Numbered from the stretch's first letter, positions 6,149 through 64,000 are shown. The stretch: DNA of 64,000 nucleotides from an uncultured Ectothiorhodospiraceae bacterium (GCA_947258615.1 CAMYIX010000043.1:1825-65824); one strand, 5' to 3'. The notes: generated from the sequence alone by a model not told the origin. Made by a program: numbers and translations.

Positions 6149-6330
6149 TGATTAATCCGTCATTGCGACGAAGCAGTCTTTAAGGAAACTCTGATTAATC
6201 CGTCATTGCGAGGAACAAAGTGACGAAGCAATCTCCAAACGATTGATTATGAATCCTGAGATTGCCGCGCTGGCCGTTCCCGGCTTGGCCCAGGCCAGCC
6301 TCTCGACCGGTTCCCGGTCTCACCTTCTCC
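6149..6330. repeat. Repeat family 2, copy 1 (gtcattgcgag...gacgaagcaatct module duplicated, then cccaggccagcctctcgaccggttcccNgtctcacct module)
   Basis: Shares both modules with 42418-42565. The module attaatccgtcattgcga occurs twice (6151 and 6194). Confidence 0.6.
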
Positions 6331-13993: not shown

Positions 13994-14013
13994 AGCTATA
14001 TTGTTACTACATC

Positions 14014-14148
14014 TTCACCGCAGAGACGCAGAGGACGCAGAGCACACAAAGACTAAGAATTACCAGCCAAAGCATTAACCCGAGCATCAACATTTGTCTG
14101 TGTTTTTTAAATTCTTGATCTCTGCGTCCTTTGCGTCTCTGCGGTGAG
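14014..14148. repeat. GCAGAG-type inverted-repeat element, copy A (simple form)
   Basis: Left arm ttcaccgcagagacgcagaggacgcagag (14014-14042). Right arm ctctgcgtcctttgcgtctctgcggtgag (14120-14148). An AT-rich 77-bp spacer separates them. Confidence 0.85.
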
Positions 14149-14178
14149 ATTCGAATTCCCATTAAGGAACGGCATTTC

Positions 14179-16842: not shown

Positions 16843-16851
16843 AACAGATTA

Positions 16852-17007
16852 TTCACCGCAGAGACGCAGAGAGCGCAAAGAACATCAAATAAATGATTGC
16901 TTATGATGTGTTCAGGATGCCTGGCAGCCGATACAAGCAGGAATCAATTATTGTTTTTCTTATTTCTAAATGTTTTTACTTTGCGCTCTCTGCGTCTCTG
17001 CGGTGAA
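16852..17007. repeat. GCAGAG-type inverted-repeat element, copy B (simple form)
   Basis: Arms ttcaccgcagagacgcagagagcgcaaag (16852-16880) and ctttgcgctctctgcgtctctgcggtgaa (16979-17007). Confidence 0.85.
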
Positions 17008-17033
17008 ATTTATTCTCCTAATGGACCCTGACT

Positions 17034-19997: not shown

Positions 19998-20696
19998 CTA
20001 CTTGAACAGGTACTCGCGCTGGCCGGCATACGGGGTGGCGGGCGCCGGATAGGTAGAACCGCCGGTCGCGGGGGGCGCCGGATAGGGGGAGCCGCCGGTC
20101 GCCGGGGCTGGTGACGCTTTGCTTGCCTCTTCGAGTTTCTTGATGCGTTGTTTCAGGCGCTCGATTTCAGCGGCATCGGGATCGGCCTGGGGGGCGGAAT
20201 AAGCCGGGGCGGCGCCGTAGCCACCCGGGGCAGCGTAGCCGCCCGGAGCACCGTAGCCACCCGGGGCAGCGTAGCCGCCCGGAGCGCCGTAACCGCCAGG
20301 GGCAGCGTAGCCGCCCGGTGCGCCGTAGCCACCCGGTGCGCCGTAGCCACCCGGATCGCCATAGCCGCCCGGGGCGCCGTAGCCGCCCGGGGCGCCGTAG
20401 CCGCCCGGGGCGCCGCCGTAACCACCCGGGGCACCACCGTAACCGTATCCCGGTGCCCCGCCGTAGCCATAGCCGGGTTCGCCGCCGTATCCCGGTGCTC
20501 CGCCGTAGCCATAGCCGGGTTCGCCACCGTAACCATAACCCGGTGGTGGGCCATCGTAGTAATCGTCATCCTTGTTGCCACCCATCCATTCAGAGGGGTT
20601 CATCATGTTGCCGAAGTCGAAGGCAGCGGCCGGGTTGGCGAGTAGCAAACCGGTTGCCATAAGAAGTCCACTGATTGTGTGTGCTGGATAGCGCAT
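19998..20696 (-). CDS. Secreted Gly/Tyr/Pro-repeat protein with C-terminal coiled-coil segment (sulfur-globule-protein-like)
   Basis: Signal peptide MRYPAHTISGLLMATGLLLANPAAA, then about 25 repeats of the type (A/E)PG(G)YG(G), then EIERLKQRIKKLEEASKA, then a Pro-rich tail. Confidence 0.7.
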   Translation of the reverse strand: MRYPAHTISGLLMATGLLLANPAAAFDFGNMMNPSEWMGGNKDDDYYDGPPPGYGYGGEPGYGYGGAPGYGGEPGYGYGGAPGYGYGGAPGGYGGAPGGYGAPGGYGAPGGYGDPGGYGAPGGYGAPGGYAAPGGYGAPGGYAAPGGYGAPGGYAAPGGYGAAPAYSAPQADPDAAEIERLKQRIKKLEEASKASPAPATGGSPYPAPPATGGSTYPAPATPYAGQREYLFK

Positions 20697-27905: not shown

Positions 27906-30900
27906 ATGCGTATCTTGATCGGAGTGTTTATTATGCTGGCCGGCCTCGTTGCCGCCATCATATCTGCTTTAAAATCAATGGCTAAGCCCGAGTTCTGGCA
28001 GAGGGGCGCAGAGCGGCTGAAGGCGTATTCCCAGGCGATGGGGGAGCCGGGGACGGTTGCCGGGCAATTCGGCAGCCGGAATACGGGTGTCGACCAGAGC
28101 GCGCCCGGGGCAGCTGACGCGCAGCAGACACTGCCGCTGTTCGCGGATATTGAGCAGGAGATCAGTCAGCTGCAGGACAAGGTTCATTACCTGGACAGCG
28201 CCTACCGGGAAAGTGAGGGTCGTGCCGAGCTGCTCGAGGCCAGACTGAAGGAAATCGGCCAGCTGGATGGCGTGGTCGATGAGCGCAGGCATGAAATAAA
28301 CCAGTCGTGCGGAACAACCGATGATCCTGGTTCCACAGTAGTCATCAGCCAGGAAGGTGCGACCCCAGCGGACCTCAAGAAGCAGGCAAGCGATCAGCTG
28401 GAGATAAAGATCAAGCAGCGTGACGATGAACTCGTCGAACTGAGGGAAAAGCTGCAAGTGCTGGAAGAATTGCGTGCCCGCGAGTCCGAACGCCAGGAAA
28501 ACAAGGAACGGGAAACCGATGAACTGACATCAAAAATAGAAGAACTCAGCGCCGCATTGCAGGAAAGCGGGCAATGTGCGGGCCAGCAGCTTGAGGAAAA
28601 AAACCGGGAAATCAGGGAGCTCCAGGAGCGGTTCCAGCAGACGAAAACCGTACACCTCGAGAGAGAGAATCTGGCCAGGCAGCAACTTGATTTCAATATG
28701 CAGGAACTCAGGCAGCTTGGAGAGACTATCGAAGTCAAGGAGCAGGAAATCGTGGGTCTGCAGGGCAAGATCCATCAAATGGACCTGGCAGCGAATGAGG
28801 CCGAAGAGCGCGCGGTCCTGCTGGAAGAGAAGGAACGTCACATCAGCCGACTGCAAGGTCAGGTCCATGAACTCGATGCAGCCCTGCATCACAGTGCCGA
28901 ACGCTCCCAGCAACTCGAAACCAGCGAGCATGAGGTGGCACGGCTGGGTACCCGGGTGGTTGAGCTGGAATCTGCGCTGACTGACAGCCGGGAGCGCGTA
29001 GAGCAACTGGAGAAGAAAGATCAGGAGATCGAACACCTCAATACCGTGGTGCAGCAGAAGGCCGATCATATTTCCAGCCTCGAAGACCGGCTTGAGTTAC
29101 AGGATGCCGCCATTCAGGAAGGGAACGAGCGCGACGCCCTGCTTGAGTCCAGGGCGCGCGAGGTTATTGAGCTGCATAACCGGGTGCAGGAACTGGAAGC
29201 AATACTGCAAGACAGCCATGAACGTACCCTGCAACTGGAAGGCAAGGAACAGGAGGTAAACTCGCTGACGGCCCGGGTGCAGGAGCTTGCACGCCTCAAT
29301 GAGGTATTGCAGCAGAAGACCGATCATCTCGAGGCATTGGAGCAGCGGGTCCAGGCGCTGGATGCGGCCCTCCAGGAGGGCCATGACTATAGTCAGTTAC
29401 TGGAGGCCCGGGACCAGGAAATCGCGCGACTCGACGAGCAGGTGCAGCTACTCGAGATCAGGGAGCATGAGATCAATGCACTTAATGTCCAGGTAAAGAA
29501 GCTGGAATCCGAACTGCATGACAGCCAGGAGCGCACCCATCAGCTCGAGGCCATAGAGCAGGAAATTGTGCGTCTGAGTGAGCAGGCTCAAAACCTTGAG
29601 GGCAAGGGTGTTGAGATTGAGGAGATGACCGACCGGATAAAGGAACTGGAATCCGAGCTGCATATTACTCAGCAGCGCGCAGGGCAACTGGAGGCCGGGG
29701 AGCAGGAGATTGCGCGCCTCAATGAGACGCTGCAGAAGAAGACCAATCATATCGTGGCACTGGAGCAGCAGGTCCAGAAGCTGGATGAAGTGGTACGGGA
29801 TGGCAATGAGCATGGTCAGTTGCTGCAGATCAGGGATCAGGAGATTGCGCGGCTTGTTGAACAAACCCACAAGCTCTCCGGGCAGGCGCAGCAACTCGAG
29901 GGCAGGAATGAGGAAGTCAGGCAACTGAATAACCGGGTAGAGGAGCTTGAATCTGCCCTATCTGAGGCTGGCAAGCATGCACAGCTACTCGAGATCAAAC
30001 AGCAGGAAGTCAGCGAGCTGAATGCCAGGCTGCAGGATCTGTCAGTTGCGCTGCAGGAAAGTCAGGGCCGCGCGAAAGAAGCTGATGCCAGGAGCGAGGA
30101 AATCGCTCGCTTGAATGCACGACTCCGGGAGCTGGAAGCCGCGGTCGAGGCTGGCAATGAGCAGGCGCAGGTGCTACAGGCGAAGGAGCAAGAACTCGGC
30201 GAATTGACTGCCCGGCTCCGGGAGCTGGAAGCCGCGGTCGAGGCTGGCAATGAGCAGGCGCAGGTGCTGCAGGCGAAGGAGCAGGAGGTCGGTGAGCTCA
30301 CCGCCCGGCTGCGGGAGCTGGAAGCCGCGGTCGAGGCCGGCAATGCGCAGGCGCAGGCGTTGCAGGCGAAGGAGCAGGAGCTCGGCGGGCTCACCGCACG
30401 ATTGCAGGAGCTGGAAGCCGCGGTCGAGGCTGGTAATGCGCAGGCCCAACAGCTGGAGGTGAAGGAGCAGGAGGTCGGCGGGCTCACCGCACGATTGCAG
30501 GAGCTGGAAGCCGCGGTCGAGGCCGGTAATGCGCAGGCCCAACAGCTGGAGGTGAAGGAGCAGGAACTCGGCGAATTGACTGCCCGGCTCCGGGAGCTGG
30601 AAGCCGCGGTCGAGGTCGGCAATGCGCAGGCGCAGGTACTGCAATCGAGGGAGCAGGAGGTCGGCGAACTGACTGCACGGCTGCAGGAGCAGGTCAGGCA
30701 GCTGCAGGCCTGGGAGCAGGAAACTGCCAGTTTGCAGATGGCTGTGAGTGAGAAGGATGAGCAGATCAACGAAATCAAAGGGAAGATGCATGACCTGGCC
30801 ATCACCCTGCGCGATACCACGGCAGACGCAAAGGAGGCAGATGCCAGGCGCGAGGAAATCCTGCGCCTGAATCAACGGCTCAGGGAGTTGGAAGCCGACG

Positions 30901-33731
30901 TTGAGGCGGGCAATGCGCAGGCACAGCAGCTGCTGGCGAAGGAGCAGGAGCTCAGTGACCTGACTGCCCGGCTGAAGGAGCTGGAAGCTGCAGTCAGTGA
31001 AAAGGAAGAGTATGCCCGGCAGCTGGATGCAAGAGACCAGCAGATTGCGCAGCTCGGCATGGAAGTCGAGGCAAAGGGTCATGAGATCGCCAAGATGCAC
31101 GGTCAAATCCAGGACCTGGATGCGGCGGCGCAGCAAAGCGAAGCCATGGCCCGTTGCATTGAAGAGAAGGACCAGCAAATCGCCCGACTGCATTCCCAGG
31201 TACAGAGGCTGGGAACAGCTGTGCGTAAGAGCGCGGACCGTGTCCAGGTACTCGAGGAAAGGGAACACCTGATCGAGCAACTGAAAGGTGAGGTCAGGAG
31301 GCTGGAGGAAGGCAAGGATGAACTTGAACTGAGCCGGGAGGAGATGGCCCGGATGCAGGTGCGGCTTGAAGAGATGAGTGAGTCAGCACAAGCCGCTACC
31401 GATCAGGCGCAGCAGATGGAAATCAGGGAACGTGAAGCCAACGAGCTGCTTAACCGGGTAGAGGAACTGGAAAGTCAGCTGCATGAGAGTCATGAACGTG
31501 CTCAGCAGCTGCAGGCGAAGGAGCAGGAAGTTGGCGAGCTCACCACCCGGCTGCGGGAGCTGGAAGCCGCCGTCGAGGCCGGCAATTCACAGGCACAGGC
31601 GCTGCAGGCGAAGGAGCAGGAGCTCGGCGAACTCACCGCCCGGCTGCAGGAGCTGGAAGCCGCGGTCGAGGCCGGCAATGTGCAGGCGCAGGTGCTGCAG
31701 GCGAAGGAGCAGGAAGTTGGCGAACTCACCGCCCGCCTGCGGGAGCTGGAAGCCGCGGTCGAGGCCGGCAATGCGCAGGCACAGCAGCTGCAGGCGAAGG
31801 AGCAGGAAGTTGGCGAACTCACCACCCAGCTGCAGGAGCTGGAAGCCACCGTCGAGGCCGGCAATGCACAGGCACAGGCGCTGCAGGCGAAGGAGCAGGA
31901 GCTCGGGGAAGTCACTGCCCGGCTGCGAGAGCTGGAAGCCGCGGTCGAGGCGGGCAACGCGCAGGCACAGCAGCTGCAGGCGAAGGAACAGGAACTCGGC
32001 GAACTCACCGCCCGGCTGCAGGAGCTGGAATCGGCTGCCGCCGAGGGTGGCGACCATGCGCAGCTGCTGGAAGTCAAGCAGCAGGAAGTCAGCCGGCTGA
32101 CAGGGGAACTCGAGGAATTATCTGTCGAGCTGCAGGGCAGTCAGGAGCGTGCGCAGCAACTTGAAGCCAGGGAGCAGGAGATTTCACGTCTGGAGGAAAG
32201 GGCCAGGGAACTGGAGGCGGCACTGCAAGACAGCACTGAACGGGAACAACTGCTTGAGGCCAGGGAGCACGAAGTGACTGAACTCAAGGGCAAGCTCCAG
32301 GAGATGGCTGTGGTCCTGCAAGACAAGGAATCCCTTTCCGGAGGGCTGGCGGCTGTAACCCAGAATCAGATGGATGAGCAGGATATCGCTGTCAATTCTG
32401 TAGAGGAAGAGAAGTTGATGGAGATCAGCAAGCAGGACCCATTGACGGGTCTGTTCAATCGGCAGCATTTCATGCAGCTACTGGAAGAAAGCCTGGCCCA
32501 GGACAACGCGAGAAACGGCGACCAGGTGTTGATCTATATATTGCTGGAAAACTTCAAGTCAGTCCGCGATGAAATCGGGATTAACGGCAGTGATCTGGTT
32601 CTGCGTGAAACTGCTGCGCAGATCGCCTCCAATTGTGGTGAACAGGATCTAATCGCCCGTTTCAGCGACACTGTCTTTGTGGTGTTGCATCGTGGCGAAC
32701 ATCTGAGTGAGACCCGGGAGCTTTCCGAAAAAATGTTGCATGCTATCGAGCACCATGTCTTCGATGCTGAAGGAAGCTCAGTGATGGTTAAACTCAGTAT
32801 CGGTTTGTGCCCTGTCAGTGAGCATACCAGTACCGCGCAGGATGTGATTACACGTGCCGATCTGGCGTGTGAGGTTGCCAGCTCGTCCGAGGGGTCAAGA
32901 ATTCATTCCCACGACGTGACTGTTGACGAGCAGATGAGCCAGGACCATGAGGGCGAGTGGGATGTGATGATAAGGAATACGCTTGATGAAGAGCGCTTTT
33001 ACCTTGTCTACCAACCCATCGTCAGTCTCAACGGCGATGTCAGTGAGCGTTACGAGGTGCTGCTCAGGATCGTCGACGATGAGGGGCAGGTGGTTCTGCC
33101 AAGCCAGTTCCTGTCGATCGCAGACAAGATCGGACTGACCCATGAAATCGATCGTTGGGTCATTGATACCGCTATTACGACACTGGCAGAGCTGCACCGT
33201 GAGGGGAGGGACACAACGTTTTTTGTGAAGATATCCGGTAAAACACTGGCCGACAGCGAACTGCCTCTGTGGATCCATGAAAAGATCAGCGAATGCCAGG
33301 TCAAGACGGGGAATATCGTTTTCGAGATTACCGAGGCGGTTGCGCTCAAGGACCTCAGAAACACCATGCACTTCGTCAATGCCATGAACAAACTGGGCTG
33401 CAAGGTGGCGCTGGAACACTATGGTCGCGCTAACCAGCCGCAGCTGCTCAAGCACCTGTCCGTGGATGTCCTCAAGATCGATGGAAGCCTGATCGAGAAT
33501 CTGAGCACCAACAAGGAAAATCAGGTCATCGTGAAGCGCATCATCGAGGCTGCCAACAGCCACGATATCAAGTGTACAGCTGAACGCGTGGAAGAGGCCC
33601 ATGATCTCGGGATGCTCTGGCAGTACGGTGTCGAGTTTGTCCAGGGCAATTTTGCCCAGATACCGAGCAAGGACCTGGATTACAATTTCGAGGGGGATTC
33701 CGCCGAGGAGGAATCGACGATCTATATGTGA
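27906..33731 (+). CDS. Giant membrane-anchored coiled-coil protein with C-terminal degenerate GGDEF and EAL domains
   Basis: 1,941-aa uninterrupted ORF. It has one N-terminal TM helix and about 1,400 aa of E/Q/L/A/R-rich heptad-type sequence. The GGDEF-fold domain (PLTGLFNRQHF) carries RFSDTVF in place of GGDEF. The EAL domain keeps EVLLR, FEITE and KIDGS, but has EHYG in place of DDFG. Confidence 0.85.
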   Translation: MRILIGVFIMLAGLVAAIISALKSMAKPEFWQRGAERLKAYSQAMGEPGTVAGQFGSRNTGVDQSAPGAADAQQTLPLFADIEQEISQLQDKVHYLDSAYRESEGRAELLEARLKEIGQLDGVVDERRHEINQSCGTTDDPGSTVVISQEGATPADLKKQASDQLEIKIKQRDDELVELREKLQVLEELRARESERQENKERETDELTSKIEELSAALQESGQCAGQQLEEKNREIRELQERFQQTKTVHLERENLARQQLDFNMQELRQLGETIEVKEQEIVGLQGKIHQMDLAANEAEERAVLLEEKERHISRLQGQVHELDAALHHSAERSQQLETSEHEVARLGTRVVELESALTDSRERVEQLEKKDQEIEHLNTVVQQKADHISSLEDRLELQDAAIQEGNERDALLESRAREVIELHNRVQELEAILQDSHERTLQLEGKEQEVNSLTARVQELARLNEVLQQKTDHLEALEQRVQALDAALQEGHDYSQLLEARDQEIARLDEQVQLLEIREHEINALNVQVKKLESELHDSQERTHQLEAIEQEIVRLSEQAQNLEGKGVEIEEMTDRIKELESELHITQQRAGQLEAGEQEIARLNETLQKKTNHIVALEQQVQKLDEVVRDGNEHGQLLQIRDQEIARLVEQTHKLSGQAQQLEGRNEEVRQLNNRVEELESALSEAGKHAQLLEIKQQEVSELNARLQDLSVALQESQGRAKEADARSEEIARLNARLRELEAAVEAGNEQAQVLQAKEQELGELTARLRELEAAVEAGNEQAQVLQAKEQEVGELTARLRELEAAVEAGNAQAQALQAKEQELGGLTARLQELEAAVEAGNAQAQQLEVKEQEVGGLTARLQELEAAVEAGNAQAQQLEVKEQELGELTARLRELEAAVEVGNAQAQVLQSREQEVGELTARLQEQVRQLQAWEQETASLQMAVSEKDEQINEIKGKMHDLAITLRDTTADAKEADARREEILRLNQRLRELEADVEAGNAQAQQLLAKEQELSDLTARLKELEAAVSEKEEYARQLDARDQQIAQLGMEVEAKGHEIAKMHGQIQDLDAAAQQSEAMARCIEEKDQQIARLHSQVQRLGTAVRKSADRVQVLEEREHLIEQLKGEVRRLEEGKDELELSREEMARMQVRLEEMSESAQAATDQAQQMEIREREANELLNRVEELESQLHESHERAQQLQAKEQEVGELTTRLRELEAAVEAGNSQAQALQAKEQELGELTARLQELEAAVEAGNVQAQVLQAKEQEVGELTARLRELEAAVEAGNAQAQQLQAKEQEVGELTTQLQELEATVEAGNAQAQALQAKEQELGEVTARLRELEAAVEAGNAQAQQLQAKEQELGELTARLQELESAAAEGGDHAQLLEVKQQEVSRLTGELEELSVELQGSQERAQQLEAREQEISRLEERARELEAALQDSTEREQLLEAREHEVTELKGKLQEMAVVLQDKESLSGGLAAVTQNQMDEQDIAVNSVEEEKLMEISKQDPLTGLFNRQHFMQLLEESLAQDNARNGDQVLIYILLENFKSVRDEIGINGSDLVLRETAAQIASNCGEQDLIARFSDTVFVVLHRGEHLSETRELSEKMLHAIEHHVFDAEGSSVMVKLSIGLCPVSEHTSTAQDVITRADLACEVASSSEGSRIHSHDVTVDEQMSQDHEGEWDVMIRNTLDEERFYLVYQPIVSLNGDVSERYEVLLRIVDDEGQVVLPSQFLSIADKIGLTHEIDRWVIDTAITTLAELHREGRDTTFFVKISGKTLADSELPLWIHEKISECQVKTGNIVFEITEAVALKDLRNTMHFVNAMNKLGCKVALEHYGRANQPQLLKHLSVDVLKIDGSLIENLSTNKENQVIVKRIIEAANSHDIKCTAERVEEAHDLGMLWQYGVEFVQGNFAQIPSKDLDYNFEGDSAEEESTIYM
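30117..30674 (+). repeat. In-frame tandem array 1: 6 x 93 bp (31 aa)
   Basis: Units start at 30117, 30210, 30303, 30396, 30489 and 30582. Consensus ARL(R/Q)ELEAAVEAGN(A/E)QAQ.L..KEQE(L/V)G(E/G)LT. Confidence 0.9.
31503..32102 (+). repeat. In-frame tandem array 2: five 93-bp units (31545-32009) plus partial or degenerate flanking units
   Basis: It has the same 31-aa consensus as array 1. I checked the phase at 31545 and 32010. Confidence 0.9.
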
Positions 33732-40860: not shown

Positions 40861-42396
40861 TCAGCCAGTCTTGGCCGGCGGTGTGTCCGTCGGCACGCTG
40901 ATGTCCGGGTGCAACTCGTTCAGTGGAATGGACAGGCCGTTTCCGGTGACCACGCGGGCATGCATGCGGGACAGCTGGCGGGGCTCCCGGACACCGCAGG
41001 AATGCGCAATGATCCCCACTTCATAGACGATGTTGCGGGCGTAGCTGGCCACCCGCACGGCTTTGTGTTTCGGGTCGAGGCCCTTTTGCAGACCCTTGTC
41101 GTGGGTGGTGATCCCGGTCGGGCAGGTGTTCTTGTTGCACTGCAGCGCCTGGATGCAACCTAGCGAAAACATGAAACCGCGTGCCGAGGTGATGAAGTCC
41201 GCACCCAGGCACAGTGCCCAGGCGACATCGGCGGGTGTGATCAGCTTTCCGGAGGCGATTACCTTGATACGCTCCCGCAGGCCGTACTCGTTGAGCTTGT
41301 CGAGCAGCAGGGGCAGACTCTCGCGTAACGGCAGGCCGACGTCATCGATCAGCGGCATGGGCGCAGCCCCGGTGCCGCCATCGGCACTGTCCACGGTGAT
41401 GAAATCCGGCGCGCTTTCGTTGCCGCGCTCATTGATTTCCCCGAACAGCCCGTCCAGCCAGCCATAGGCGCCGATTACGGCCTTGAAGCCGACCGGTTTT
41501 CCGGTCACTTCGCGGATCCGCCGGATCATGTCGAGGAGGTCACTGTTCGAATTGATATCCGGATGGCGGTTGGGACTGATGGCATCATGTCCCGGTTGAA
41601 TGCCGCGTATGTGTGCGATCTCCTGAGTGACCTTGGCGCCCGGCAAGATGCCGCCCTTGCCGGGCTTGGCGCCCTGGCTGAGCTTGATCTCGAACATCCG
41701 GACTTGCGCGTGTGCGGCAGCCTCCCGGAGCTTGTCGTCATTCAGGTTGCCGGCCAGGTCGCGCACCCCGTTCTTGGCCGTGCCGATCTGGAAGACCAGG
41801 TCGCAGCCCCCGTCGAGGTGCCAGGGCGACAGCCCGCCCTCGCCGGTGTTCAGCCAGCAGCCCGCCATTTTGGCGCCGCGCGACAGTGCCAGTACCGCGG
41901 GTTTCGAGATGGCGCCGTAACTCATGCCGGAGATATTGAACAGGGAATCGGTGGTGTAGGGTTCCCGGCAATACGGCCCGATGGTGATGGGCTGGGTGGG
42001 GACGGCGTCCTCGCCCAGGGTAGGGTAGGGGCAGTTGACGAACAGCACGGTGCCGGCCGGACGCAGATCGCGGGTCGAGCCGAAGCCGACGGTGTTATCG
42101 ATGTTCTTGGCGGCCCGGTAGACCCAGGAACGCTGGGCGCGGTTAAAAGGCAGTTCCTCCCGGTCCATGGCAAAGAAATACTGCCGGAAGAATTCCCCCA
42201 GGCGCTCGAAGAAGTTGCGAAGGCGTCCGATGACCGGGTAATTGCGACGGATGGCATGTTTGGTCTGGGTGACGTCGAGGATGAAGACGACGATGACGGC
42301 CAGGACACCCAGGCCGACCACAAAGACAAACAGGGTCGCCATGATATTGAGCGCGGCCTGGATGTAGGAAGCCGTTTCCCCGGACATGAACTCCAT
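40861..42396 (-). CDS. FMN-binding glutamate synthase family protein (GltB central-domain-like, membrane anchored)
   Basis: An N-terminal TM helix is followed by HAIRRNYPVIGRLRNFFE...ISGMSYGAIS...IKLSQGAKPGKGGILPG...DGGTGAAP. Confidence 0.85.
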   Translation of the reverse strand: MEFMSGETASYIQAALNIMATLFVFVVGLGVLAVIVVFILDVTQTKHAIRRNYPVIGRLRNFFERLGEFFRQYFFAMDREELPFNRAQRSWVYRAAKNIDNTVGFGSTRDLRPAGTVLFVNCPYPTLGEDAVPTQPITIGPYCREPYTTDSLFNISGMSYGAISKPAVLALSRGAKMAGCWLNTGEGGLSPWHLDGGCDLVFQIGTAKNGVRDLAGNLNDDKLREAAAHAQVRMFEIKLSQGAKPGKGGILPGAKVTQEIAHIRGIQPGHDAISPNRHPDINSNSDLLDMIRRIREVTGKPVGFKAVIGAYGWLDGLFGEINERGNESAPDFITVDSADGGTGAAPMPLIDDVGLPLRESLPLLLDKLNEYGLRERIKVIASGKLITPADVAWALCLGADFITSARGFMFSLGCIQALQCNKNTCPTGITTHDKGLQKGLDPKHKAVRVASYARNIVYEVGIIAHSCGVREPRQLSRMHARVVTGNGLSIPLNELHPDISVPTDTPPAKTG

Positions 42397-42417
42397 GCGA
42401 CGCCCCCTTAAGGGAAT

Positions 42418-42565
42418 CCCTGATTAATTGATGTATAACGTCATTGCGAGCGTAGCGAAGCCATCTCTTGCAATCAGGGTCAACGAGTTACAGATTGCTT
42501 CGTCGCCGGCCGCTCCCGGTATGACCCAGGCCAGCCTCTCGACCGGTTCCCTGTCTCACCTTTCC
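42418..42565. repeat. Repeat family 2, copy 2
   Basis: cgtcattgcgagcgtagcgaagccatct...agattgcttcgtcgcc hairpin, followed by cccaggccagcctctcgaccggttccctgtctcacct, which it shares with 6286-6330. Confidence 0.6.
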
Positions 42566-42629
42566 CTTGTAGATCGTGCTCCTCGCGATGGCGAATTCAT
42601 CCGATCATACCTGGACAATAACCGGCTTT

Positions 42630-43238
42630 TCAGCAGCGCTCCTGGTTGCGCCAGCGCCGTGCGATCCAGTAGTCGGCACTGAAGTACCTGCCGGCACCAA
42701 GGTAGAGTAGCGCCAGCAGCATGATGAAATAGGTGGCGGCAAATTCGATACCGTTTTTCAGAATGGTGATGCCCCCGGTCTCGGTCAACCAGCTGTAGTT
42801 ACCATGTTCCCTGAGCAGACTCCTGGCAGCCTCCCGGCGCGTGTTGGCCTCCTCGATGAGGTCGGTTCGCCATTCCCAGGGGACAGTGAGGTCGGTCTCG
42901 GGCAGGACATGCCAGCCGTTATCCCAGTGTGCGGTCGTGGCGGCGACTAGCATGGTAAACATCAGGGGGATGACCGCCCAGCGGACTGCCAGTCCGGCCA
43001 GCAGTGCAATACCGCCCAGTAGCTCTGTCAGGGCGGCAACATAGACCATGAGCTCCGGTGCCGGGATGCCCAGCGACTCGAAATAGGGGCCGAGGTGTTC
43101 CGCATGTTTCAGCTTGTTACTGCCCGCCAGAATAAAGATCGGGGCCAGGAATAATCGCAGTGCCAGCGGGGCCAGAAAGTCCAGCGGGCGGATGACGCGT
43201 TCCAGCAGGCTCTGCAGGCAGTTCATGAATCCGATCAT
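42630..43238 (-). CDS. DoxX-family membrane protein, last gene of the MNIO cluster (HvfX/bufferin-operon DoxX-like)
   Basis: 202 aa. LALRLFLAPIFILAGSNKL...LTELLGGIALLAGLAVRW, with 4 TM helices. Confidence 0.8.
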   Translation of the reverse strand: MIGFMNCLQSLLERVIRPLDFLAPLALRLFLAPIFILAGSNKLKHAEHLGPYFESLGIPAPELMVYVAALTELLGGIALLAGLAVRWAVIPLMFTMLVAATTAHWDNGWHVLPETDLTVPWEWRTDLIEEANTRREAARSLLREHGNYSWLTETGGITILKNGIEFAATYFIMLLALLYLGAGRYFSADYWIARRWRNQERC

Positions 43239-43289
43239 GGCTGTTCTCCCGGTTGTGGTTTTTTGTTGGTGCAGCGTCCGGTAGCCGGA

Positions 43290-44078
43290 TCAATGCCGTC
43301 TGGTGCCGGGGATGATGTCCTTCTCATGCAAGCCCCTGAAGATTGCCCGGCCACCCTCGACGACGACTTCGGGTTGCGGATGCGATAGCTCCCGGGCAAT
43401 GATCAGCAACAGTTCTTCGCCCGTGGCCCCGGGCTCCGATTCGACCAGTTCCAGCAACCGACGGGTGACCGGGTTGATCTCGATAAAGCCGACCTCGTCC
43501 CGGCGGTCGCGGTACACGACCAGGTAGGTCGGGGTATCCCCCGGCGCGTCCGGCCGGAAGTCGGGGCCGATGCGATGGACGGGATAGCGGTAGGCGAGAT
43601 GCCAAGCCAGCGGAGACAGCATCGGGCTACCCGTCATCAGATCACCCTCGGGGTCGAACTGTTCCGGGTCGAGCCGTTCATCCGCCACGGAGAGGGCCAG
43701 TTCCACCCACTCGTAGTGTGCCAGCTCCTGCAGGAAGGGCGGGTCCTCCGGGTGTTCGCTGCGCTCATGCTCCAGGTAGTTGAGGAATTCGCGCGGCATC
43801 TCCAGGAACAGCGGTGTATGTGCGCGGTGCCGGTTGAAGTAGTCCCTGATCAGGGCATGCCAGGCTGCATCATCCAGGATCCTGCGCAGGACCGGGAAGG
43901 TGCCGGACATGAAGCCCTCGACATTGTTGTAGAACAGCTCACGATAGATGCCCATGCGCCGGTCTTCGATATCTGCCGGTGCGGACCGGTGCTCCGGATC
44001 GCGTATATGGGCAGCGAATTCATACTGCCTGCGGACAAAATCCGGGAGTTCAGTTCTGGAGTGCGATGCCATGGCCAC
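43290..44078 (-). CDS. DUF2063-type partner protein of the MNIO (HvfC/BufC/MbnC-role-like)
   Basis: 262 aa. Its start overlaps the 3' end of the DUF692 gene by 29 nt. The assignment rests on position and a general resemblance to DUF2063 N-terminal sequences. Confidence 0.7.
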
Positions 44079-44910
44079 AGGCCGCCTTCCATTTGTTCTG
44101 CAATGCCTTGATGTGACTCATCTCGGCGAGCAGTTCCGGGAGCGGCGGGATATTGAAGTCGCGTTCCAGCAGGGTGGGAACCACGCCGAAATGTTCGTAG
44201 GCGGTTTCCAGCAGGTCCCAGACCGGGTCGATGACCGGGGCGCCGTGGGTGTCCACCTTGAGGTCGTCGGCCTCGTCGTAGTGTCCGGCCATGTGAAAAT
44301 AGACGACGCGCCCGGCGGGTAATGCCTTGAGAAACCGTTCTGCGTCATAGCGATGGTTGATGCTGTTGACGTAGATGTTGTTCACGTCCAGCAGCAGGTC
44401 ACAGTCGGCCTCGGACAGGACGGCGTTGATGAAGTCGATCTCGTCCATCTCCTTGCCCGGGGCCGCGTAGTAGGAAACATTCTCCATGGCGATGCGCCGT
44501 TCCAGGATGTCCTGAACGCGCCGGATGCGGCCGGCGACATAATGGACGGCCTCTTCGGTAAACGGGATGGGCAGCAGATCGTAGAGATGACCATCGTCGC
44601 TGCAGTAACTCAGGTGTTCGGTGTAAAAGCGGATATTGTGTTCATCGAGAAAGCGCTTGACCCTGAACAGGAAGGTCTCGTCCAGGGGGGCGGGGCTGCC
44701 GATGGACAGGGACAGTCCGTGCGCCACAAACGGGTAGCGTTCGGTAAACCAGCTGAAGTCCTTGCCCGGCTTGCCGCCGACGCCGATCCAGTTTTCCGGG
44801 GCCACCTCGAAGAAATCGACCGCATCCGGCGGGTTGTCCCGCAGCGGACCCATCAGGGTCCGCCGCAGTCCAAGTCCCGCCCCGGCGACCGGGTAGTGTG
44901 TTGCAGTCAC
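44050..44910 (-). CDS. DUF692 / UPF0276 multinuclear non-heme iron oxidase (MNIO; MbnB/HvfB/BufB-like)
   Basis: GLGLRR...FFEVAPENW...HGLSLSIG...YTEHLSY...ENVSYY...[14 protein letters not shown]...FHMAGH...VDTHG, 286 aa. Confidence 0.9.
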
Positions 44911-44928
44911 GGTTGCTAGGGGCGACGC

Positions 44929-45465
44929 TTACTTGTTAGCGCCGCACTTGCCTTCGCCGCACTTGCCTTCCATCATGCCCTTGGCCTTGTCGACCGCCTT
45001 GGCGCCGCCGCATTTGCCTTCACCGCACTTGCCTTCCTTCATTTTCATTTCGCTGGCATCGATTACGCCATCCGCATTCTTGTCCTTCTTGCTGAACATG
45101 GACTCGTGGGCTGACATGAACTCGTCCTTGGTGACCTTGCCATCGCCATCGGCGTCCATGCTCTTCATGCCGCATTTGCCCTCGCCACACTTGCCTTCCA
45201 TGGTGGCCTTGGCCGTGCCGCCGCACTTGCCTTCACCGCACTTGCCTTCACCGCACTTGCCTTCCTTGGTGGCCTTGGTTGCACCACCGCATTTACCTTC
45301 ACCGCACTTGCCCTCCGCCATACCGGCGACCATGTAGCCGCTGGAAAGCTCGGTCATGGCGAACGGATTCTCAGCGGCGGTGGCCGTGTTGATGCTCGCC
45401 AGCGAGGTCACGATGGCCGTACTCACAGCGATCGCCAGGGGTTTGATTACAGTTTTATCTGACAT
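44929..45465 (-). CDS. Secreted Cys-repeat protein: 11 x (E)GKCG motifs flanking a paired EF-hand (predicted MNIO substrate)
   Basis: GGAGAG RBS before ATG at 45465. A signal peptide ends INTATAA, then ENPFAMTELSSGYMVA. The EGKCG blocks follow. The EF-hand loops are DADGDGKVTKDE and DKNADGVIDASE. Confidence 0.85.
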   Translation of the reverse strand: MSDKTVIKPLAIAVSTAIVTSLASINTATAAENPFAMTELSSGYMVAGMAEGKCGEGKCGGATKATKEGKCGEGKCGEGKCGGTAKATMEGKCGEGKCGMKSMDADGDGKVTKDEFMSAHESMFSKKDKNADGVIDASEMKMKEGKCGEGKCGGAKAVDKAKGMMEGKCGEGKCGANK

Positions 45466-45530
45466 TAGATCTCTCCACACAGGTTTTTAGGAAATGGGGT
45501 CATTGCCCCGGTTGTAATGATTGTCTTTTG

Positions 45531-45550
45531 CATCAATGCGGTGATTGATG
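45531..45550. promoter_or_regulatory. Perfect palindrome CATCAAT-N6-ATTGATG upstream of the Cys-repeat gene (candidate operator)
   Basis: catcaatgcggtgattgatg lies 66-85 nt upstream of the ATG at 45465, in a 205-nt AT-rich intergenic region. Confidence 0.3.
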
Positions 45551-45670
45551 GAGTTTACGACATTGACTTGATTGAAAAGTTTCTCGGCCTCACGGATTTC
45601 TCAAATCCCCGGGCTTCTAGATAATATATTTATTAATCAACTGGTTATAGTGTAAATTGGGGTGCCACGA

Positions 45671-46306
45671 CTACTCCATCAGCTTGTGCCGGTACTCGCA
45701 CAGGTCCGAAATCACGCATGACTGGCAACGCGGCTTGCGCGCAATGCAGGTGTAGCGACCGTGCAGGATCAGCCAGTGATGCGCATCGTGCAGGAATTCG
45801 CCGGGTACCAGGCGCAGCAGCCGCTGTTCGACCTCGGTGACATTCTTGCCGGGGGCGATGCCGGTGCGGTTGGCGACCCGGAAGATGTGGGTATCCACCG
45901 CAATGGTCGGTTGTCCGAAGGCCGTGTTGAGGACGACGTTGGCGGTCTTGCGGCCGACGCCGGGCAGGGCCTCCAGCGACTTGCGGTCCGCGGGGACCTT
46001 GCCGTTATGCCGCTCCTCCAGCAGGGTGCAGGCCTTGATGATATTGCGTGCCTTGGTATTGAACAGGCCAATGGTCTTGATGTGTTCCTTGAGTCCGTCC
46101 TCGCCCAGATCGAGCATGGCCCTGGGTGTCCTGACCTTTTTGAACAGGCCCCGGGTGGCCTTGTTGACACCGACATCGGTGGACTGGGCCGAGAGGATGA
46201 CCGCGATCAGCAACTGGAAAGGGTTGCCGTATTCGAGTTCCGTGGTCGGTTTCGGGTTGGCCGCGCGCAGGCGTTCGAAGATTTGCTGGCGTTTGTCGCG
46301 GTTCAC
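45671..46306 (-). CDS. nth: Endonuclease III
   Basis: GTG start at 46306, 20 nt after the rnfE stop, gives 211 aa. The helix-hairpin-helix LPGVGRKTANVVL is present, as is the C-terminal CX6CX2CX5C cluster (CIARKPRCQSCVISDLC). Confidence 0.9.
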   Translation of the reverse strand: MNRDKRQQIFERLRAANPKPTTELEYGNPFQLLIAVILSAQSTDVGVNKATRGLFKKVRTPRAMLDLGEDGLKEHIKTIGLFNTKARNIIKACTLLEERHNGKVPADRKSLEALPGVGRKTANVVLNTAFGQPTIAVDTHIFRVANRTGIAPGKNVTEVEQRLLRLVPGEFLHDAHHWLILHGRYTCIARKPRCQSCVISDLCEYRHKLME

Positions 46307-47037: not shown

Positions 47038-47247
47038 CACCGCAAAGGCGCAACGATCGCAAAGAAATAATATTTCTCACCGCGGAGACGCCGAGGACGC
47101 AGAGTAAGAATTCCATGGTAAAAACCCTAACAATGAATTCTCTATTTAGATGGATGTTTTATCTGTTTCATTATTTATTTTTTCTCTGCGTTCTCGGTGT
47201 CTCCGCGGTGAATACTGTTGTGTTTTTCTTTGCGACTTTGCGGTGAG
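47038..47247. repeat. GCAGAG-type inverted-repeat element, copy C (compound form: outer GCAAAG arms plus inner GCAGAG arms)
   Basis: Outer left arm caccgcaaaggcgcaacgatcgcaaagaa (from 47038). Inner left arm tcaccgcggagacgccgaggacgcagag. Inner right arm ctctgcgttctcggtgtctccgcggtgaa. Outer right arm ttctttgcgactttgcggtgag (to 47247). Confidence 0.85.
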
Positions 47248-51832: not shown

Positions 51833-52045
51833 TTCACCGCAAAGACGCAAAGGACGCAAAGACAAAATAGTCATTACCGCGGAGACGCGGAGAACGCAGA
51901 GCAAGAATTCCAGTGTGAAAACCCGAATAATTTATACTGTTTTTTGATGGATGTTTTGTCTGTTCCATTATTTACTGTTTTCTCTGTGTCCTCCGCGTCT
52001 CCGCGGTGAAAAGTCTGTGTTTTTCTTTGCGCCTTTGCGGTTAAG
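51833..52045. repeat. GCAGAG-type inverted-repeat element, copy D (compound form)
   Basis: It has the same nested outer and inner arms as copy C. The spacer is visibly homologous to that of copy C (aagaattcca...gatggatgtttt.tctgtt.cattattta). Confidence 0.85.
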
Positions 52046-55395: not shown

Positions 55396-55405
55396 TCAAT
55401 AAAAT

Positions 55406-55583
55406 TTCACCGCAGAGACGCCGAGGACGCAGAGAAAGACATATAACAGGGAGAAATGTTAATTAGAAACAACGGCACGAAGACCGGTGGCATTCAGAAT
55501 GCCTCGATAATTGGTGGCCCTGTAAGAGAACAATTTTGAATCAATAAAGATTTTCTCTGCGCTCTCTGCGTCTCCGCGGTGAA
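55406..55583. repeat. GCAGAG-type inverted-repeat element, copy E (simple form)
   Basis: Arms ttcaccgcagagacgccgaggacgcagag (55406-55434) and ctctgcgctctctgcgtctccgcggtgaa (55555-55583). Confidence 0.85.
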
Positions 55584-55641
55584 TGACCCGCTTTAACAAA
55601 CCAGCCGGACCGAAATCCGGCGTTTCCATGGAATAGCTGAT

Positions 55642-56322
55642 ATGTCGATCAAGTCTGACAAGTGGATCCGGCGCATGGCCCAGGAACATGCCATGATCGA
55701 GCCGTTCGAGGCGGGGCAGGTGAGGCACAGTGAAGACGGCTCGCGCCTGGTTTCCTACGGCACCTCGAGCTATGGCTATGACATCCGCTGTTCCGACGAA
55801 TTCAAGATCTTCACCAATATCAACTCGGCAATCGTCGATCCCAAGAACTTCGACGCCAACAGCTTCGTGGACGTCAAGGCCGATGTCTGCATTATCCCGC
55901 CTAACTCCTTCGCCCTGGCGCGGACGGTCGAGTATTTCCGCATCCCGCGCAATGTCCTGACCATCTGCCTTGGCAAGTCGACCTATGCGCGTTGCGGCAT
56001 CATCGTCAATGTGACGCCGTTCGAGCCCGAGTGGGAAGGGCATGTCACCCTGGAGTTCTCCAACACCACACCGCTGCCGGCCAAGATCTATGCCAACGAG
56101 GGTGTGGCCCAGGTGCTGTTCCTGGAGTCGGACGAGGTCTGCGAGACCTCCTACAAGGACCGCGGCGGCGCCAGAAGGGCGTCACGTTGCCGAAGACCTG
56201 AACGGCCTGTTCACCGCAAAGGCGCAAAGGACGCAAAGAAAAAATCTGTTATTACCGCAGAGACGCAGAGAACGCGGAGTAAGGATTCAGAAGGTATTAC
56301 ATCAAAAGACGTTCTCGTGTAA
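55642..56322 (+). CDS. dcd: dCTP deaminase with a 3'-terminal frameshift relative to the family consensus
   Basis: [22 protein letters not shown]...[10 protein letters not shown]...[32 protein letters not shown]...SYKDRGG, then an aberrant tail. The conserved ending [13 protein letters not shown] is present in a different frame (56172-56201). Confidence 0.8.
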
Positions 56323-56435
56323 TTTATAGAGGCTTGGGTTTTTTAAAATAATTTATTTTTGATTTGTTTTCTCTGCGCACTCTGCGTCTCTGCGGTGAGG
56401 AAATTTGTTTGTGTTCTTTGCGCCTTTGCGGTTAG
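56210..56435. repeat. GCAGAG-type inverted-repeat element, copy F (compound form)
   Basis: Outer arms ttcaccgcaaaggcgcaaaggacgcaaagaa and ttctttgcgcctttgcggttag. Inner arms ttaccgcagagacgcagagaacgcggag and ctctgcgcactctgcgtctctgcggtgag. Confidence 0.85.
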
Positions 56436-61500: not shown

Positions 61501-61591
61501 GCAGGACAAGGCTGTGTGATCCGAAAGATATAAGAAAGATCTACCGCAGAGACGCAAAGGGCGCAGAGAAAACAATAAATATTAGGGTGCT

Positions 61592-62098: not shown

Positions 62099-62282
62099 AC
62101 GCCATTAGGGAAGGCCGGAATCCAGTAACTGCCTGATTCCCAATTTTTGGACTCCGGGTCTCCGCCACGCTACGCCCGTAATAAACATCTCAATGAAGTA
62201 GCTATGGATTGCCGGTTCAGGTTTTTCACAGATGTAATCCTTACTCTGCGATCTCGGCGTCTCAGCGGTGATTCTTTGCTGT

Positions 62283-63636: not shown

Positions 63637-63792
63637 TTCACCGCAGAGACGCAGAGTCCCCTGGGAAAATATAATATCTGATTCAAAGAATGCACTTTCC
63701 TGACAGGCAAGGTGAACCTGTATGGTTTGGCATATTTGTATTGATAATGAGAATTATTGCTCTACTCGGCGTTCTCGGCGTCTCTGCGGTAA
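63637..63792. repeat. GCAGAG-type inverted-repeat element, copy H (simple, more diverged)
   Basis: Left arm ttcaccgcagagacgcagag (63637-63656). Right arm ctctactcggcgttctcggcgtctctgcggtaa (63760-63792). Confidence 0.75.
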
Positions 63793-63801
63793 ATATACTG
63801 T

Positions 63802-64000
63802 TCAAAGGATCTTCAGCACGGCTTCCGGGGGGCGGCCCAGGGCAGCCTTGCCATTGGCCAGTACGATGGGGCGCTCAATCAGGCGCGGGTGCCGGTGCAT
63901 GGCCCTGATCAGGTCCCTGTCTTTCAGCCCAGGATTATCCAGGTCTTCCTGCCGGTACTCGGTCTCTTTTCGGCGCATCAGTTCGCGCGGCTGCAGCCCG
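63802..64000 (-). CDS. arsC: ArsC-family (glutaredoxin-type arsenate reductase-like) protein, C-terminal part; gene runs off the right edge
   Basis: My minus-strand translation reads ...GLQPRELMRRKETEYRQEDLDNPGLKDRDLIRAMHRHPRLIERPIVLANGKAALGRPPEAVLKIL-stop (stop at 63802-63804). Confidence 0.7.
   Translation of the reverse strand, partial: GLQPRELMRRKETEYRQEDLDNPGLKDRDLIRAMHRHPRLIERPIVLANGKAALGRPPEAVLKIL

Follow-up and report, generated by a model that had tools for sequence, protein, structure and literature searches.

A probable hvfABCX-type operon in an uncultured Ectothiorhodospiraceae bacterium, with an EF-hand pair between the two EGKCG arms of its precursor

The 64,000-nucleotide (nt) stretch of DNA analyzed here, hereafter the window (GCA_947258615.1, CAMYIX010000043.1:1825-65824, from an uncultured Ectothiorhodospiraceae bacterium), contains four tightly packed minus-strand genes, the first of which encodes a protein rich in EGKCG motifs. 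The question raised by this locus is to which of the related systems built around a multinuclear non-heme iron oxidase (MNIO) it belongs, and what role an EF-hand pair might play in the middle of the putative substrate. The cluster is very probably an operon of the hvfABCX type (oxazolin/'captophorin') with an EF-hand-containing precursor. As such, it belongs to a well-described and very common class, of which the EF-hand subclass is already catalogued. The EF-hand pair itself, located between seven N-terminal and four C-terminal EGKCG motifs, was overlooked in the first-pass annotation of this DNA, which was made from the sequence alone; the coordinates and spacing of the four genes given there were reproduced exactly from the open reading frames (ORFs):

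44929-45465, minus strand: hvfA-like precursor gene, 178 amino acids (aa), ATG start
44050-44910, minus strand: hvfB, MNIO gene, 286 aa, GTG start
43290-44078, minus strand: hvfC, gene for a partner with DUF2063 and a RiPP recognition element (RRE)-type domain, 262 aa, GTG start (RiPP, ribosomally synthesized and post-translationally modified peptide)
42630-43238, minus strand: hvfX, DoxX-type membrane protein gene, 202 aa

An 18-nt gap separates hvfA from hvfB, the end of hvfB overlaps the start of hvfC by 29 nt, and a 51-nt gap lies between hvfC and hvfX. Searches with profile hidden Markov models of Pfam and NCBIfam, the check that had been proposed along with the first-pass annotation, placed the hvfB product in DUF692 and the hvfC product in DUF2063. 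The former, previously described as a DUF692/UPF0276 enzyme on the strength of motifs that are all present, matches PF05114 (MbnB_TglH_ChrH, formerly DUF692; E = 1.2e-106) and the NCBIfam HvfB model NF003818 (448.8 bits against a cut-off of 360), in both cases over the full length. The latter, the DUF2063-type partner of the earlier description, is recognized by the DUF2063 (92.6 bits) and NGO1945_C (105.9 bits) models of Pfam as well as by the HvfC model NF050145 (323.7 bits, cut-off 142). The hvfX product shows a DoxX match in Pfam (76.9 bits), passes the HvfX model NF050144 (187.5 bits, cut-off 80), and contains approximately four hydrophobic segments, the middle two of which merge in the hydropathy scan, with a loop of about 60 residues before the last one, consistent with the earlier prediction of a DoxX protein with four transmembrane segments. 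The assignment to the Hvf type follows from the passing of the HvfB, HvfC and HvfX equivalog models and of the HvfA-family repeat model (see below), in agreement with Pfam; it is further supported by the tight A-B-C gene order, the overlap of hvfB with hvfC and the location of the precursor gene immediately upstream of hvfB. Curated NCBI models exist for every hvf component.

Two related assignments were tried and rejected. The locus had been labeled 'bufferin/Hvf-type'; the Hvf half of this label stands, given the three models passed, whereas the bufferin half does not. For a bufferin (Buf1/Buf2) system, the BufB model NF050167 yields 270.4 bits, below its cut-off of 310, and the precursor lacks a DUF2282 match. 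For a methanobactin system, the MbnB model TIGR04159 yields 40.4 bits against a cut-off of 325, and the partner belongs to DUF2063 rather than being MbnC.

All nine iron-ligand positions are kept in the HvfB protein of the window (H64, H99, E143, D175, N178, H206, D220, H222 and E249). These positions were mapped through alignment to the closest solved structure, the Histophilus somni MNIO (PDB 3BWW, E = 4.5e-75), and to MbnB structures, using the ligand lists of PMC9060507 and the HvfB site-3 residues N175/D242/H244; the corresponding ligands of iron sites 1-3 in MbnB are H54, H90, E133, D163, N166, H192, D208, H210 and E239 (PMC9060507). With the complete set of ligands present, HvfB looks catalytically competent.

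The putative substrate of this enzyme contains exactly 11 EGKCG motifs, which hold all 11 of its cysteines, and is detected by the NCBIfam model NF050137 (KCGExKCG_twice, the HvfA family) with 82.9 bits against a cut-off of 19.5. The earlier description of a secreted protein with 11 (E)GKCG motifs is thus exact in its count, and a Sec signal peptide is predicted. An alternative GTG start at position 45480 appears in the mechanical ORF list; the ATG at 45465 is preferred because the ribosome binding site GGAGAG lies 5 nt before it and because an identical 178-aa precursor is on record in a public protein collection (P0001). From N- to C-terminus, the precursor consists of the Sec signal peptide, an NPF..GY box, seven EGKCG motifs, the EF-hand pair and four more EGKCG motifs:

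45376-45465, minus strand: predicted Sec signal peptide, residues 1-30, cleavage after A-T-A
45334-45369, minus strand: post-signal box N33-P34-F35 ... G43-Y44, invariant in 29 aligned homologues
45169-45315, minus strand: N-terminal cysteine arm, seven EGKCG motifs grouped as 2 + 3 + 2, with 7-residue linkers
45049-45156, minus strand: EF-hand pair, residues 104-139, identified with Pfam; the loop starts are 24 residues apart
44941-45036, minus strand: C-terminal cysteine arm, four EGKCG motifs grouped as 2 + 2, from the motif count

The N-terminus contains a hydrophobic segment at approximately residues 5-26, as seen in the hydropathy profile, followed by A-T-A/A (the slash marks the cleavage point), and an A-x-A/A-E site is conserved in the alignment of precursor homologues. 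These features are consistent with a Sec signal peptide; export and cleavage would occur by analogy with HvfA (PMC11252979). The NPF..GY box is found just after the signal peptide in 115 of the 120 best homologues from a collection of 5.8 billion proteins, the sample used for all layout counts below. The RRE domain of HvfC probably docks at this box, a recognition role suggested by the finding that HvfA is modified best when its N-terminal region is intact (PMC11252979). In the N-terminal arm, the motif blocks start at residues 51, 68 and 90, with paired blocks recurring at intervals of 17 residues (from 51 to 68 and from 73 to 90), and the cysteine motifs are underlain by tandem DNA repeats with units of 15 nt and 66 nt. 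Both arms are disordered in the AlphaFold2 model built from the 29-sequence alignment, with predicted local distance difference test (pLDDT) values below 50 in the N-terminal arm; the predicted mature protein is about 15 kDa in size with an isoelectric point of about 8.

The EF-hand pair is recognized by the Pfam models EF-hand_1 (36.4 bits, cut-off 25.4) and EF-hand_5 (36.5 bits, cut-off 25.9). It comprises two canonical 12-residue loops with D or N at positions 3 and 5: loop 1 spans D104-E115 (DADGDGKVTKDE; D104-A-D-G-D-G-K-V-T-K-D-E115) and loop 2 spans D128-E139 (DKNADGVIDASE; D128-K-N-A-D-G-V-I-D-A-S-E139). Loop positions 1, 6 and 12 (D104, G109, E115, D128, G133 and E139) are invariant in the 29-sequence alignment, and so are several of the K-C-G positions. 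Only residues ~100-143 of the AlphaFold2 model are confident (pLDDT 83-91). Comparison of this model with the PDB using Foldseek yielded no significant match (best E = 0.33); the top non-significant matches are all proteins with two EF-hands (polcalcins and calmodulin lobes), which is consistent with the assignment but uninformative.

The arrangement of the precursor is shared by most of its relatives. Motifs containing KCG are located on both sides of the EF loops in 113 of the 120 homologues (110 with two loops and 3 with one), the other 7 having no EF loops; the loop starts are exactly 24 residues apart in every one of the 110 two-loop proteins, and Pro is absent from position 2 in all 220 loops. 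The 11 motifs of the window precursor are the highest count in the sample. When one genome per species was scanned, genes of this EF-hand/EGKCG type were detected in Gammaproteobacteria (Ectothiorhodospiraceae, Thiogranum, Thiohalobacteraceae, Thiotrichaceae, Luteimonas and Aerolutibacter) and Betaproteobacteria (Thiobacillus, Nitrosomonas and Nitrosospira). Cultured carriers of an EF-hand variant include Luteimonas aquatica RIB1-20 and Aerolutibacter ruishenii CGMCC 1.10136. In most cases hvfB and then hvfC come immediately after the precursor gene, and the A-B-C(-X) cluster is found in many genomes. In the closest locus, L002, from an uncultured Ectothiorhodospiraceae metagenome-assembled genome (MAG), the order is rnfE-nth-hvfA-B-C-X followed by a glutamate-synthase-like gene, as in the window. 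The proteins of the two loci are 90% (HvfB), 88% (HvfC), 92% (HvfX), 93% (Nth) and 95% (glutamate-synthase-like protein) identical, compared to 61% for the precursor, which in L002 has 10 KCG motifs against 11 here. Given this difference (61% vs 88-92%, and 10 vs 11 motifs), the precursor evolves much faster than the enzymes, mainly through changes in repeat number.

Several relatives depart from this arrangement. Precursor genes without hvfB or hvfC in the fetched flanks (up to 8 kb) are found in seven loci of Thiogranum and others (L006, L007, L012, L014, L030, L032 and L034); their products are either modified in trans or unmodified, and some precursors of this solitary type carry EGRCG in place of EGKCG. 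Two loci stand at the extremes of the subclass. In Nitrosospira sp. Nsp11 (L027), a homologue adjacent to hvfBC has a single cysteine (EGRCG) before the EF pair. In a Bacteroidales MAG (L031), a 314-aa protein with a lipoprotein-like N-terminus contains a duplicated module, each copy comprising four EF loops, with KCG repeats on the flanks. Finally, contigs and proteins labeled 'Halobacteria archaeon' (L005, i.e., CAVYIJ010000003.1, along with P0069 and P0127) show the gammaproteobacterial rnfE-nth-hvfABCX synteny, with 67-83% protein identity to the window for the flanking genes and enzymes, and are probably mis-binned MAG contigs.

Some of these observations could be taken to mean that the precursor is chiefly a periplasmic Ca2+-binding or signaling protein similar to EfhP, the cysteine repeats of which stay unmodified or are incidental and bind metal through thiolates in the manner of a metallothionein. 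In the model, the EF-hand pair is the sole folded part; unmodified HvfA also holds two to three Cu(I) ions, albeit weakly (PMC11252979); hvfBC is not present within 8 kb of some of the solitary EF-hand/EGKCG genes (L006, L007, L012 and L014), and one Nitrosospira homologue has just a single cysteine. On the other side of the scale, in the window, the precursor gene is separated by 18 nt from a complete hvfBC pair downstream, the iron ligands of which are intact, EGKCG is strictly preserved in all 11 motifs, and the A-B-C linkage recurs across Gammaproteobacteria and Betaproteobacteria. This explanation is therefore most improbable.

The EF-hand pair in a modified precursor lends itself to another proposal, namely that it is a Ca2+-driven (conceivably lanthanide-driven) organizer, which would be unfolded in the low-Ca2+ cytoplasm and would fold in the periplasm, bringing the two thiooxazole arms together and making the Cu(I) behavior of the protein dependent on Ca2+. 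The unfolded state would leave both arms accessible to HvfBC for modification and the chain fit for export by Sec. The strict 24-residue spacing and the cysteine arms flanking the EF pair are compatible with such a role and are no demonstration of it; the proposal is a rather unlikely one. Should it be true, Cu(I) capacity, affinity or copper-induced aggregation would depend on Ca2+, and the product would represent a two-metal hybrid of a RiPP and a protein.

With respect to the chemistry, the first-pass annotation had stated that enzymes of the HvfBC type and those of bufferins oxidize cysteines into heterocycle/thioamide ligands. This part has to be revised since the literature now assigns 5-thiooxazole to the products of HvfBC, FonBC, NgoBC and to bufferins (bioRxiv 10.64898/2026.06.05.730506; PMC12668002), and oxazolone/thioamide is, after this reassignment, correct for MbnB only. 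In nontypeable Haemophilus influenzae, the secreted protein HvfA (NTHI1441) has 95 aa and three AEGKCGEGKCG units, in which HvfBC oxidize the six repeat cysteines with a loss of 4 Da each; the modified protein binds Cu(I), approximately one ion per pair of modifications (PMC11252979). The exact EGKCG sequence, to which all 11 motifs of the window precursor conform, is the one that is fully converted in oxazolin and fontiphorin (PMC12668002). Conceivably, the same gene architecture serves to install oxazolone/thioamide pairs of the methanobactin kind, as originally assigned for HvfA (PMC11252979); with the same loss of 4 Da, the two products are isobaric and difficult to distinguish. Nevertheless, two independent groups, the HvfA authors themselves (bioRxiv 10.64898/2026.06.05.730506) and those of the fontiphorin study (PMC12668002), moved oxazolin, fontiphorin, gonophorin and bufferin to 5-thiooxazole, based on alkylation-assisted nuclear magnetic resonance and comparison with methanobactin, and the HvfB of the window is far from MbnB (40 bits vs the cut-off of 325) and near HvfB. 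Methanobactin-type chemistry in this locus is accordingly very improbable.

The gene content and order, the family membership, the iron ligands, the EF loops and the conserved arm/EF pair/arm layout described above are direct observations; by analogy with the characterized homologues, from which the chemistry, export, Cu(I) binding, Ca2+ binding and regulation are taken, the following scheme can be proposed. HvfA would be synthesized with its Sec signal peptide and bound in the cytoplasm by the HvfB-HvfC complex, probably via the NPF..GY box and the RRE domain of HvfC. The active cofactor is a mixed-valent diiron cluster; using it together with O2, HvfB would oxidize all 11 EGKCG cysteines to 5-thiooxazole, removing four electrons from each. 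The modified protein would then be exported by Sec and cut by signal peptidase I after A30 to give the ~15 kDa mature form. Outside the low-Ca2+ cytoplasm, the central EF pair would fold around two Ca2+ ions, and the paired thiooxazoles of the two disordered arms would bind Cu(I), with about one copper per EGKCGEGKCG, that is, roughly five sites. The likely role of such a protein would be periplasmic copper sequestration, possibly with protection against oxidants, and its expression may start from its own stress-responsive ECF-type promoter (ECF, extracytoplasmic function).

A role in acquisition instead of sequestration, whereby the system would be a methanobactin-like chalkophore supplying copper to the cuproenzymes of sulfur- and ammonia-oxidizing lineages, might be suggested by the concentration of the EF-hand variants in chemolithotrophs (Thiobacillus, Thiogranum, Thiohalobacteraceae, Nitrosomonas, Nitrosospira and Ectothiorhodospiraceae). 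Yet the cluster contains no TonB-dependent receptor, no MbnT/MbnE-like uptake gene and no exporter, at 15 kDa the product is a protein, not a small peptide able to diffuse, and related systems are induced by metal excess, not by starvation (PMC12668002). Copper acquisition is hence quite unlikely.

As noted in the first-pass annotation, no ECF sigma/anti-sigma pair or metal sensor is found among the neighboring genes, and a tblastn search for Escherichia coli RpoE, CueR and CusR gave no match in the 64 kb, which is a soft negative. The upstream region of hvfA contains two candidate elements:

45556-45583, minus strand: candidate ECF/sigma-E-type promoter GAAACTT-N16-TCGTA, a conserved motif upstream of hvfA
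45496-45509, minus strand: small hairpin GGGG-caatga-CCCC in the putative 5' untranslated region (UTR); two of its four pairs covary in four orthologous loci, a weak signal

The promoter motif, which resembles the E. coli-type sigma-E consensus (GGAACTT / TCAAA; PMC2893595), has a single match in the window and none in 100 shuffled versions. Alignment of the nth-hvfA intergenic regions of the window, L002, L003, L004 and L005 shows a GAAACTT-N16-TC(G/A)(T/C)A block in all of them except L004; in the orthologous loci L002, L003 and L005, the motif is located 115-119 nt before the ATG, and these are the only ones among 79 fetched loci in which it occurs. It was not found upstream of the precursor genes in the Thiobacillus, Nitrosospira and Xanthomonadales loci, so that the promoter hypothesis is limited to the present lineage. 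Within this lineage, ECF-type control of hvfA through the motif is a tentative proposal, with chances somewhat short of even. With transcription predicted to start near 45549, the 5' UTR would be ~84 nt long, and its predicted folding energy is ordinary compared to shuffled sequence (z = -0.74). There is experimental precedent for such control in Neisseria meningitidis, where the homologous cluster is under sigma-E (PMC2893595), and in H. influenzae, where the hvf operon depends on RpoE2, the gene for which is encoded elsewhere in the genome (PMC7907618). The promoter scan revealed no minus-strand sigma-70 promoter upstream of hvfA. A markedly AT-rich stretch, ttgattaataaatatattatctag (45600-45660, minus strand), follows the nth stop codon directly and is positioned upstream of the candidate -35 element by ~30-55 nt; this may be nothing more than the 3' end of nth or else an UP-like element of the sort described for sigma-E promoters.

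This regulatory context is the main ground for yet another explanation, under which the primary role of the system is defense against oxidative, hypochlorite or thiol stress within an ECF sigma regulon, copper being secondary and the DoxX protein forming a periplasmic redox system with the thiooxazole protein. The hvf operon of H. influenzae is strongly RpoE2-dependent and induced by HOCl (PMC7907618), the Neisseria cluster is part of a sigma-E operon alongside msrAB (PMC2893595), a sigma-E-like motif precedes hvfA in the window, and the rnf-nth neighbors as well as the conserved flavin mononucleotide (FMN) oxidoreductase adjoining hvfX are redox-related. All biochemical studies to date, in contrast, point to high-affinity binding of Cu(I) by the modified residues, bufferins protect against copper (PMC11626156), and no redox activity of the peptide has been demonstrated to date. 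A primary stress-defense function is thus unlikely, although less so than the other alternatives to copper sequestration by an hvfABCX-type operon; the two are not exclusive, and both may hold.

Several facts weigh against this interpretation of the locus or against parts of the proposed scheme. The precursor scores 81.5 bits with the NCBIfam HvfA equivalog model NF050188, under the cut-off of 95, so that, judging by the profiles, it belongs to the HvfA family without being a strict HvfA orthologue. The literature yielded no experimental work on members of the EF-hand/EGKCG type, HvfX has been described as uncharacterized (PMC11252979), and the role of EGKCG peptides is unsettled, with copper-induced aggregation and possible proteolytic processing reported (PMC12668002). 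As for regulation, no gene for a cognate sigma factor was found in the window, the promoter motif is restricted to four close relatives (L010 has a looser variant), and, as no minus-strand terminator was detected in 42200-46000, and hence none between nth and hvfA, read-through from rnf-nth is possible.

On the upstream side, the operon follows rnfA, B, C, D, G, E and nth on the same strand, which agrees with the earlier description of the neighborhood. On the downstream side come genes for an FMN protein of the glutamate-synthase-like family, anchored in the membrane (Pfam Glu_synthase, PF01645), and for a Na+/H+ antiporter. The FMN protein gene (40861-42396, minus strand, 511 aa) is located directly downstream of hvfX here and in L001, L002 and L005; in L004, two unrelated genes on the opposite strand split the precursor from an FMN gene-hvfX-hvfB-hvfC array, in which the adjacency of the FMN gene and hvfX is retained. 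This adjacency could reflect shared ancestry or a functional link; a glutamate-synthase-like FMN gene is not among the known MNIO cluster genes in PMC12452194. The 233-nt gap after hvfX contains a 71-nt repeat (42492-42562) that is 87% identical to another copy at 6259-6326 and corresponds to the 'repeat-family-2 element' at which the cluster had been said to end. The same gap is ~45-65 nt long in L001, L002 and L005 (tblastn coordinates), which suggests that a small repeat element was inserted here; the fold of this intergenic region is no better than that of shuffled sequence (z = -0.53). A second EGKCG-encoding gene is not present in any frame of the window, and Rfam at a permissive threshold matched nothing in 42300-45800.

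Elsewhere in the window, a dispersed family of intergenic repeats similar to repetitive extragenic palindromic elements, with the core CACCGCAGAGACGCAGAG, often in inverted pairs, is found at 14011-14151, 16842-17011, 47061-47227, 51833-52013, 55402-55593, 56210-56402, 61540-61586, 62235-62269 and 63637-63802. One such pair lies between rnfE and rnfG, and the rnfG ORF extends into it. The rnf operon is flanked by two copies of a 146-nt segment, at 47038-47183 and 51835-51980. A 1941-aa ORF (27906-33731, plus strand) encodes a very large repetitive protein of unknown type with two tandem arrays of a 93-nt (31-aa) repeat, ~7 copies each, at roughly 29934-30791 and 31362-32219. In addition, an 18-nt tandem repeat with ~11 or more copies occupies 20176-20550, inside the ORF 19998-20696 (minus strand), which, if real, would encode a low-complexity protein rich in Gly, Pro, Tyr and Ala.

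Thiooxazole metallophores of the EGKCG type count among the RiPP classes of highest abundance, with a link to virulence in Haemophilus; 'captophorins' has been proposed as the class name, with more than 20,000 examples in RefSeq (PMC12668002). The EF-hand subclass is widespread in sulfur- and ammonia-oxidizing Proteobacteria, with its regular succession of cysteine arm, EF pair and cysteine arm. The window provides a clean example: the precursor has 11 motifs, the A-B-C-X operon is complete, and a candidate ECF promoter is present. It does not represent a new kind of system, and the layout of its precursor makes it a reasonable target for studies of Ca2+/Cu(I) interplay.

Among the characterized systems, the hvfABCX (oxazolin) operon of H. 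influenzae consists of the same four gene families, with adjacent genes for the precursor, the MNIO and the partner, and in both cases the precursor is of the Sec-secreted type with paired EGKCGEGKCG units. The whole HvfA profile aligns to the N-terminal 101 residues of the window precursor. HvfA has 95 aa, six modified cysteines and two N-terminal disulfide cysteines, and no EF-hands (PMC11252979), whereas the window precursor has 178 aa, 11 motifs, no N-terminal disulfide pair, an EF pair and two extra repeat units. The doxX gene is the last one in the window operon and is located on the other side of hvfA in H. influenzae (NTHI1440, PMC11252979); the host of the former is an environmental gammaproteobacterium, that of the latter a pathogen. 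Fontiphorin (FonABC, Fontimonas thermophila) and gonophorin (NgoABC) likewise derive from EGKCG precursors encoded with an MNIO and a DUF2063/RRE-type partner ('PME1'). In these systems, each EGKCG cysteine is converted to 5-thiooxazole and the products bind copper (PMC12668002); fontiphorin contains seven heterocycles, and the words 'EF-hand' and 'calcium' occur zero times in PMC12668002.

More distant are the bufferins, which share with the window a related MNIO and DUF2063 protein and a frequent doxX gene, as well as, in the scheme proposed here, a Sec-exported precursor, the 5-thiooxazole modification and the copper-protection role; unlike the window cluster, Buf1 clusters usually include an adjacent ECF sigma/NrsF pair. 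MbnABC have in common with the window system the MNIO fold, the same set of iron ligands and, in the proposed scheme, cysteine oxidation by four electrons to a copper-binding heterocycle. Methanobactin differs in its MbnC partner, its oxazolone/thioamide groups and its nature as a small, leader-cleaved peptide for copper uptake.

A short spacer of 12 residues between EF loops is characteristic of lanmodulin rather than calmodulin and is shared by the window precursor, which has two EF loops compared to four in lanmodulin. Pro at position 2 of the EF loop typifies lanmodulin. Lanmodulin itself was tried as an assignment and rejected: the LanM model NF053806 reaches 36.3 bits against a cut-off of 135, and no Pro is present at loop position 2. 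The weak profile match spans residues 97-146 and probably reflects the short inter-loop spacer.

Close counterparts of the window operon are chimeras of type Buf_EGKCG/EF-hand_5 that were catalogued bioinformatically in 2025, with no experiments (PMC12452194). Like the window precursor, these proteins contain an N-terminal hydrophobic segment, EGKCG motifs in a part predicted to be unstructured and two EF-hand_5 domains, and are encoded with an MNIO and a DUF2063 protein (and DoxX). According to the wording of PMC12452194, the EF-hands are C-terminal to a short EGKCG domain without 17-residue repeats. The window precursor departs from this wording both in the 17-residue spacing of its blocks and in the four EGKCG motifs that follow the EF pair. 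The published scheme may be a simplification because 113 of the 120 relatives have cysteine motifs flanking the EF pair, and the mismatch may lie in wording rather than in biology. Since most relatives share this layout, the present data refine the description of the chimeras rather than define a new class.

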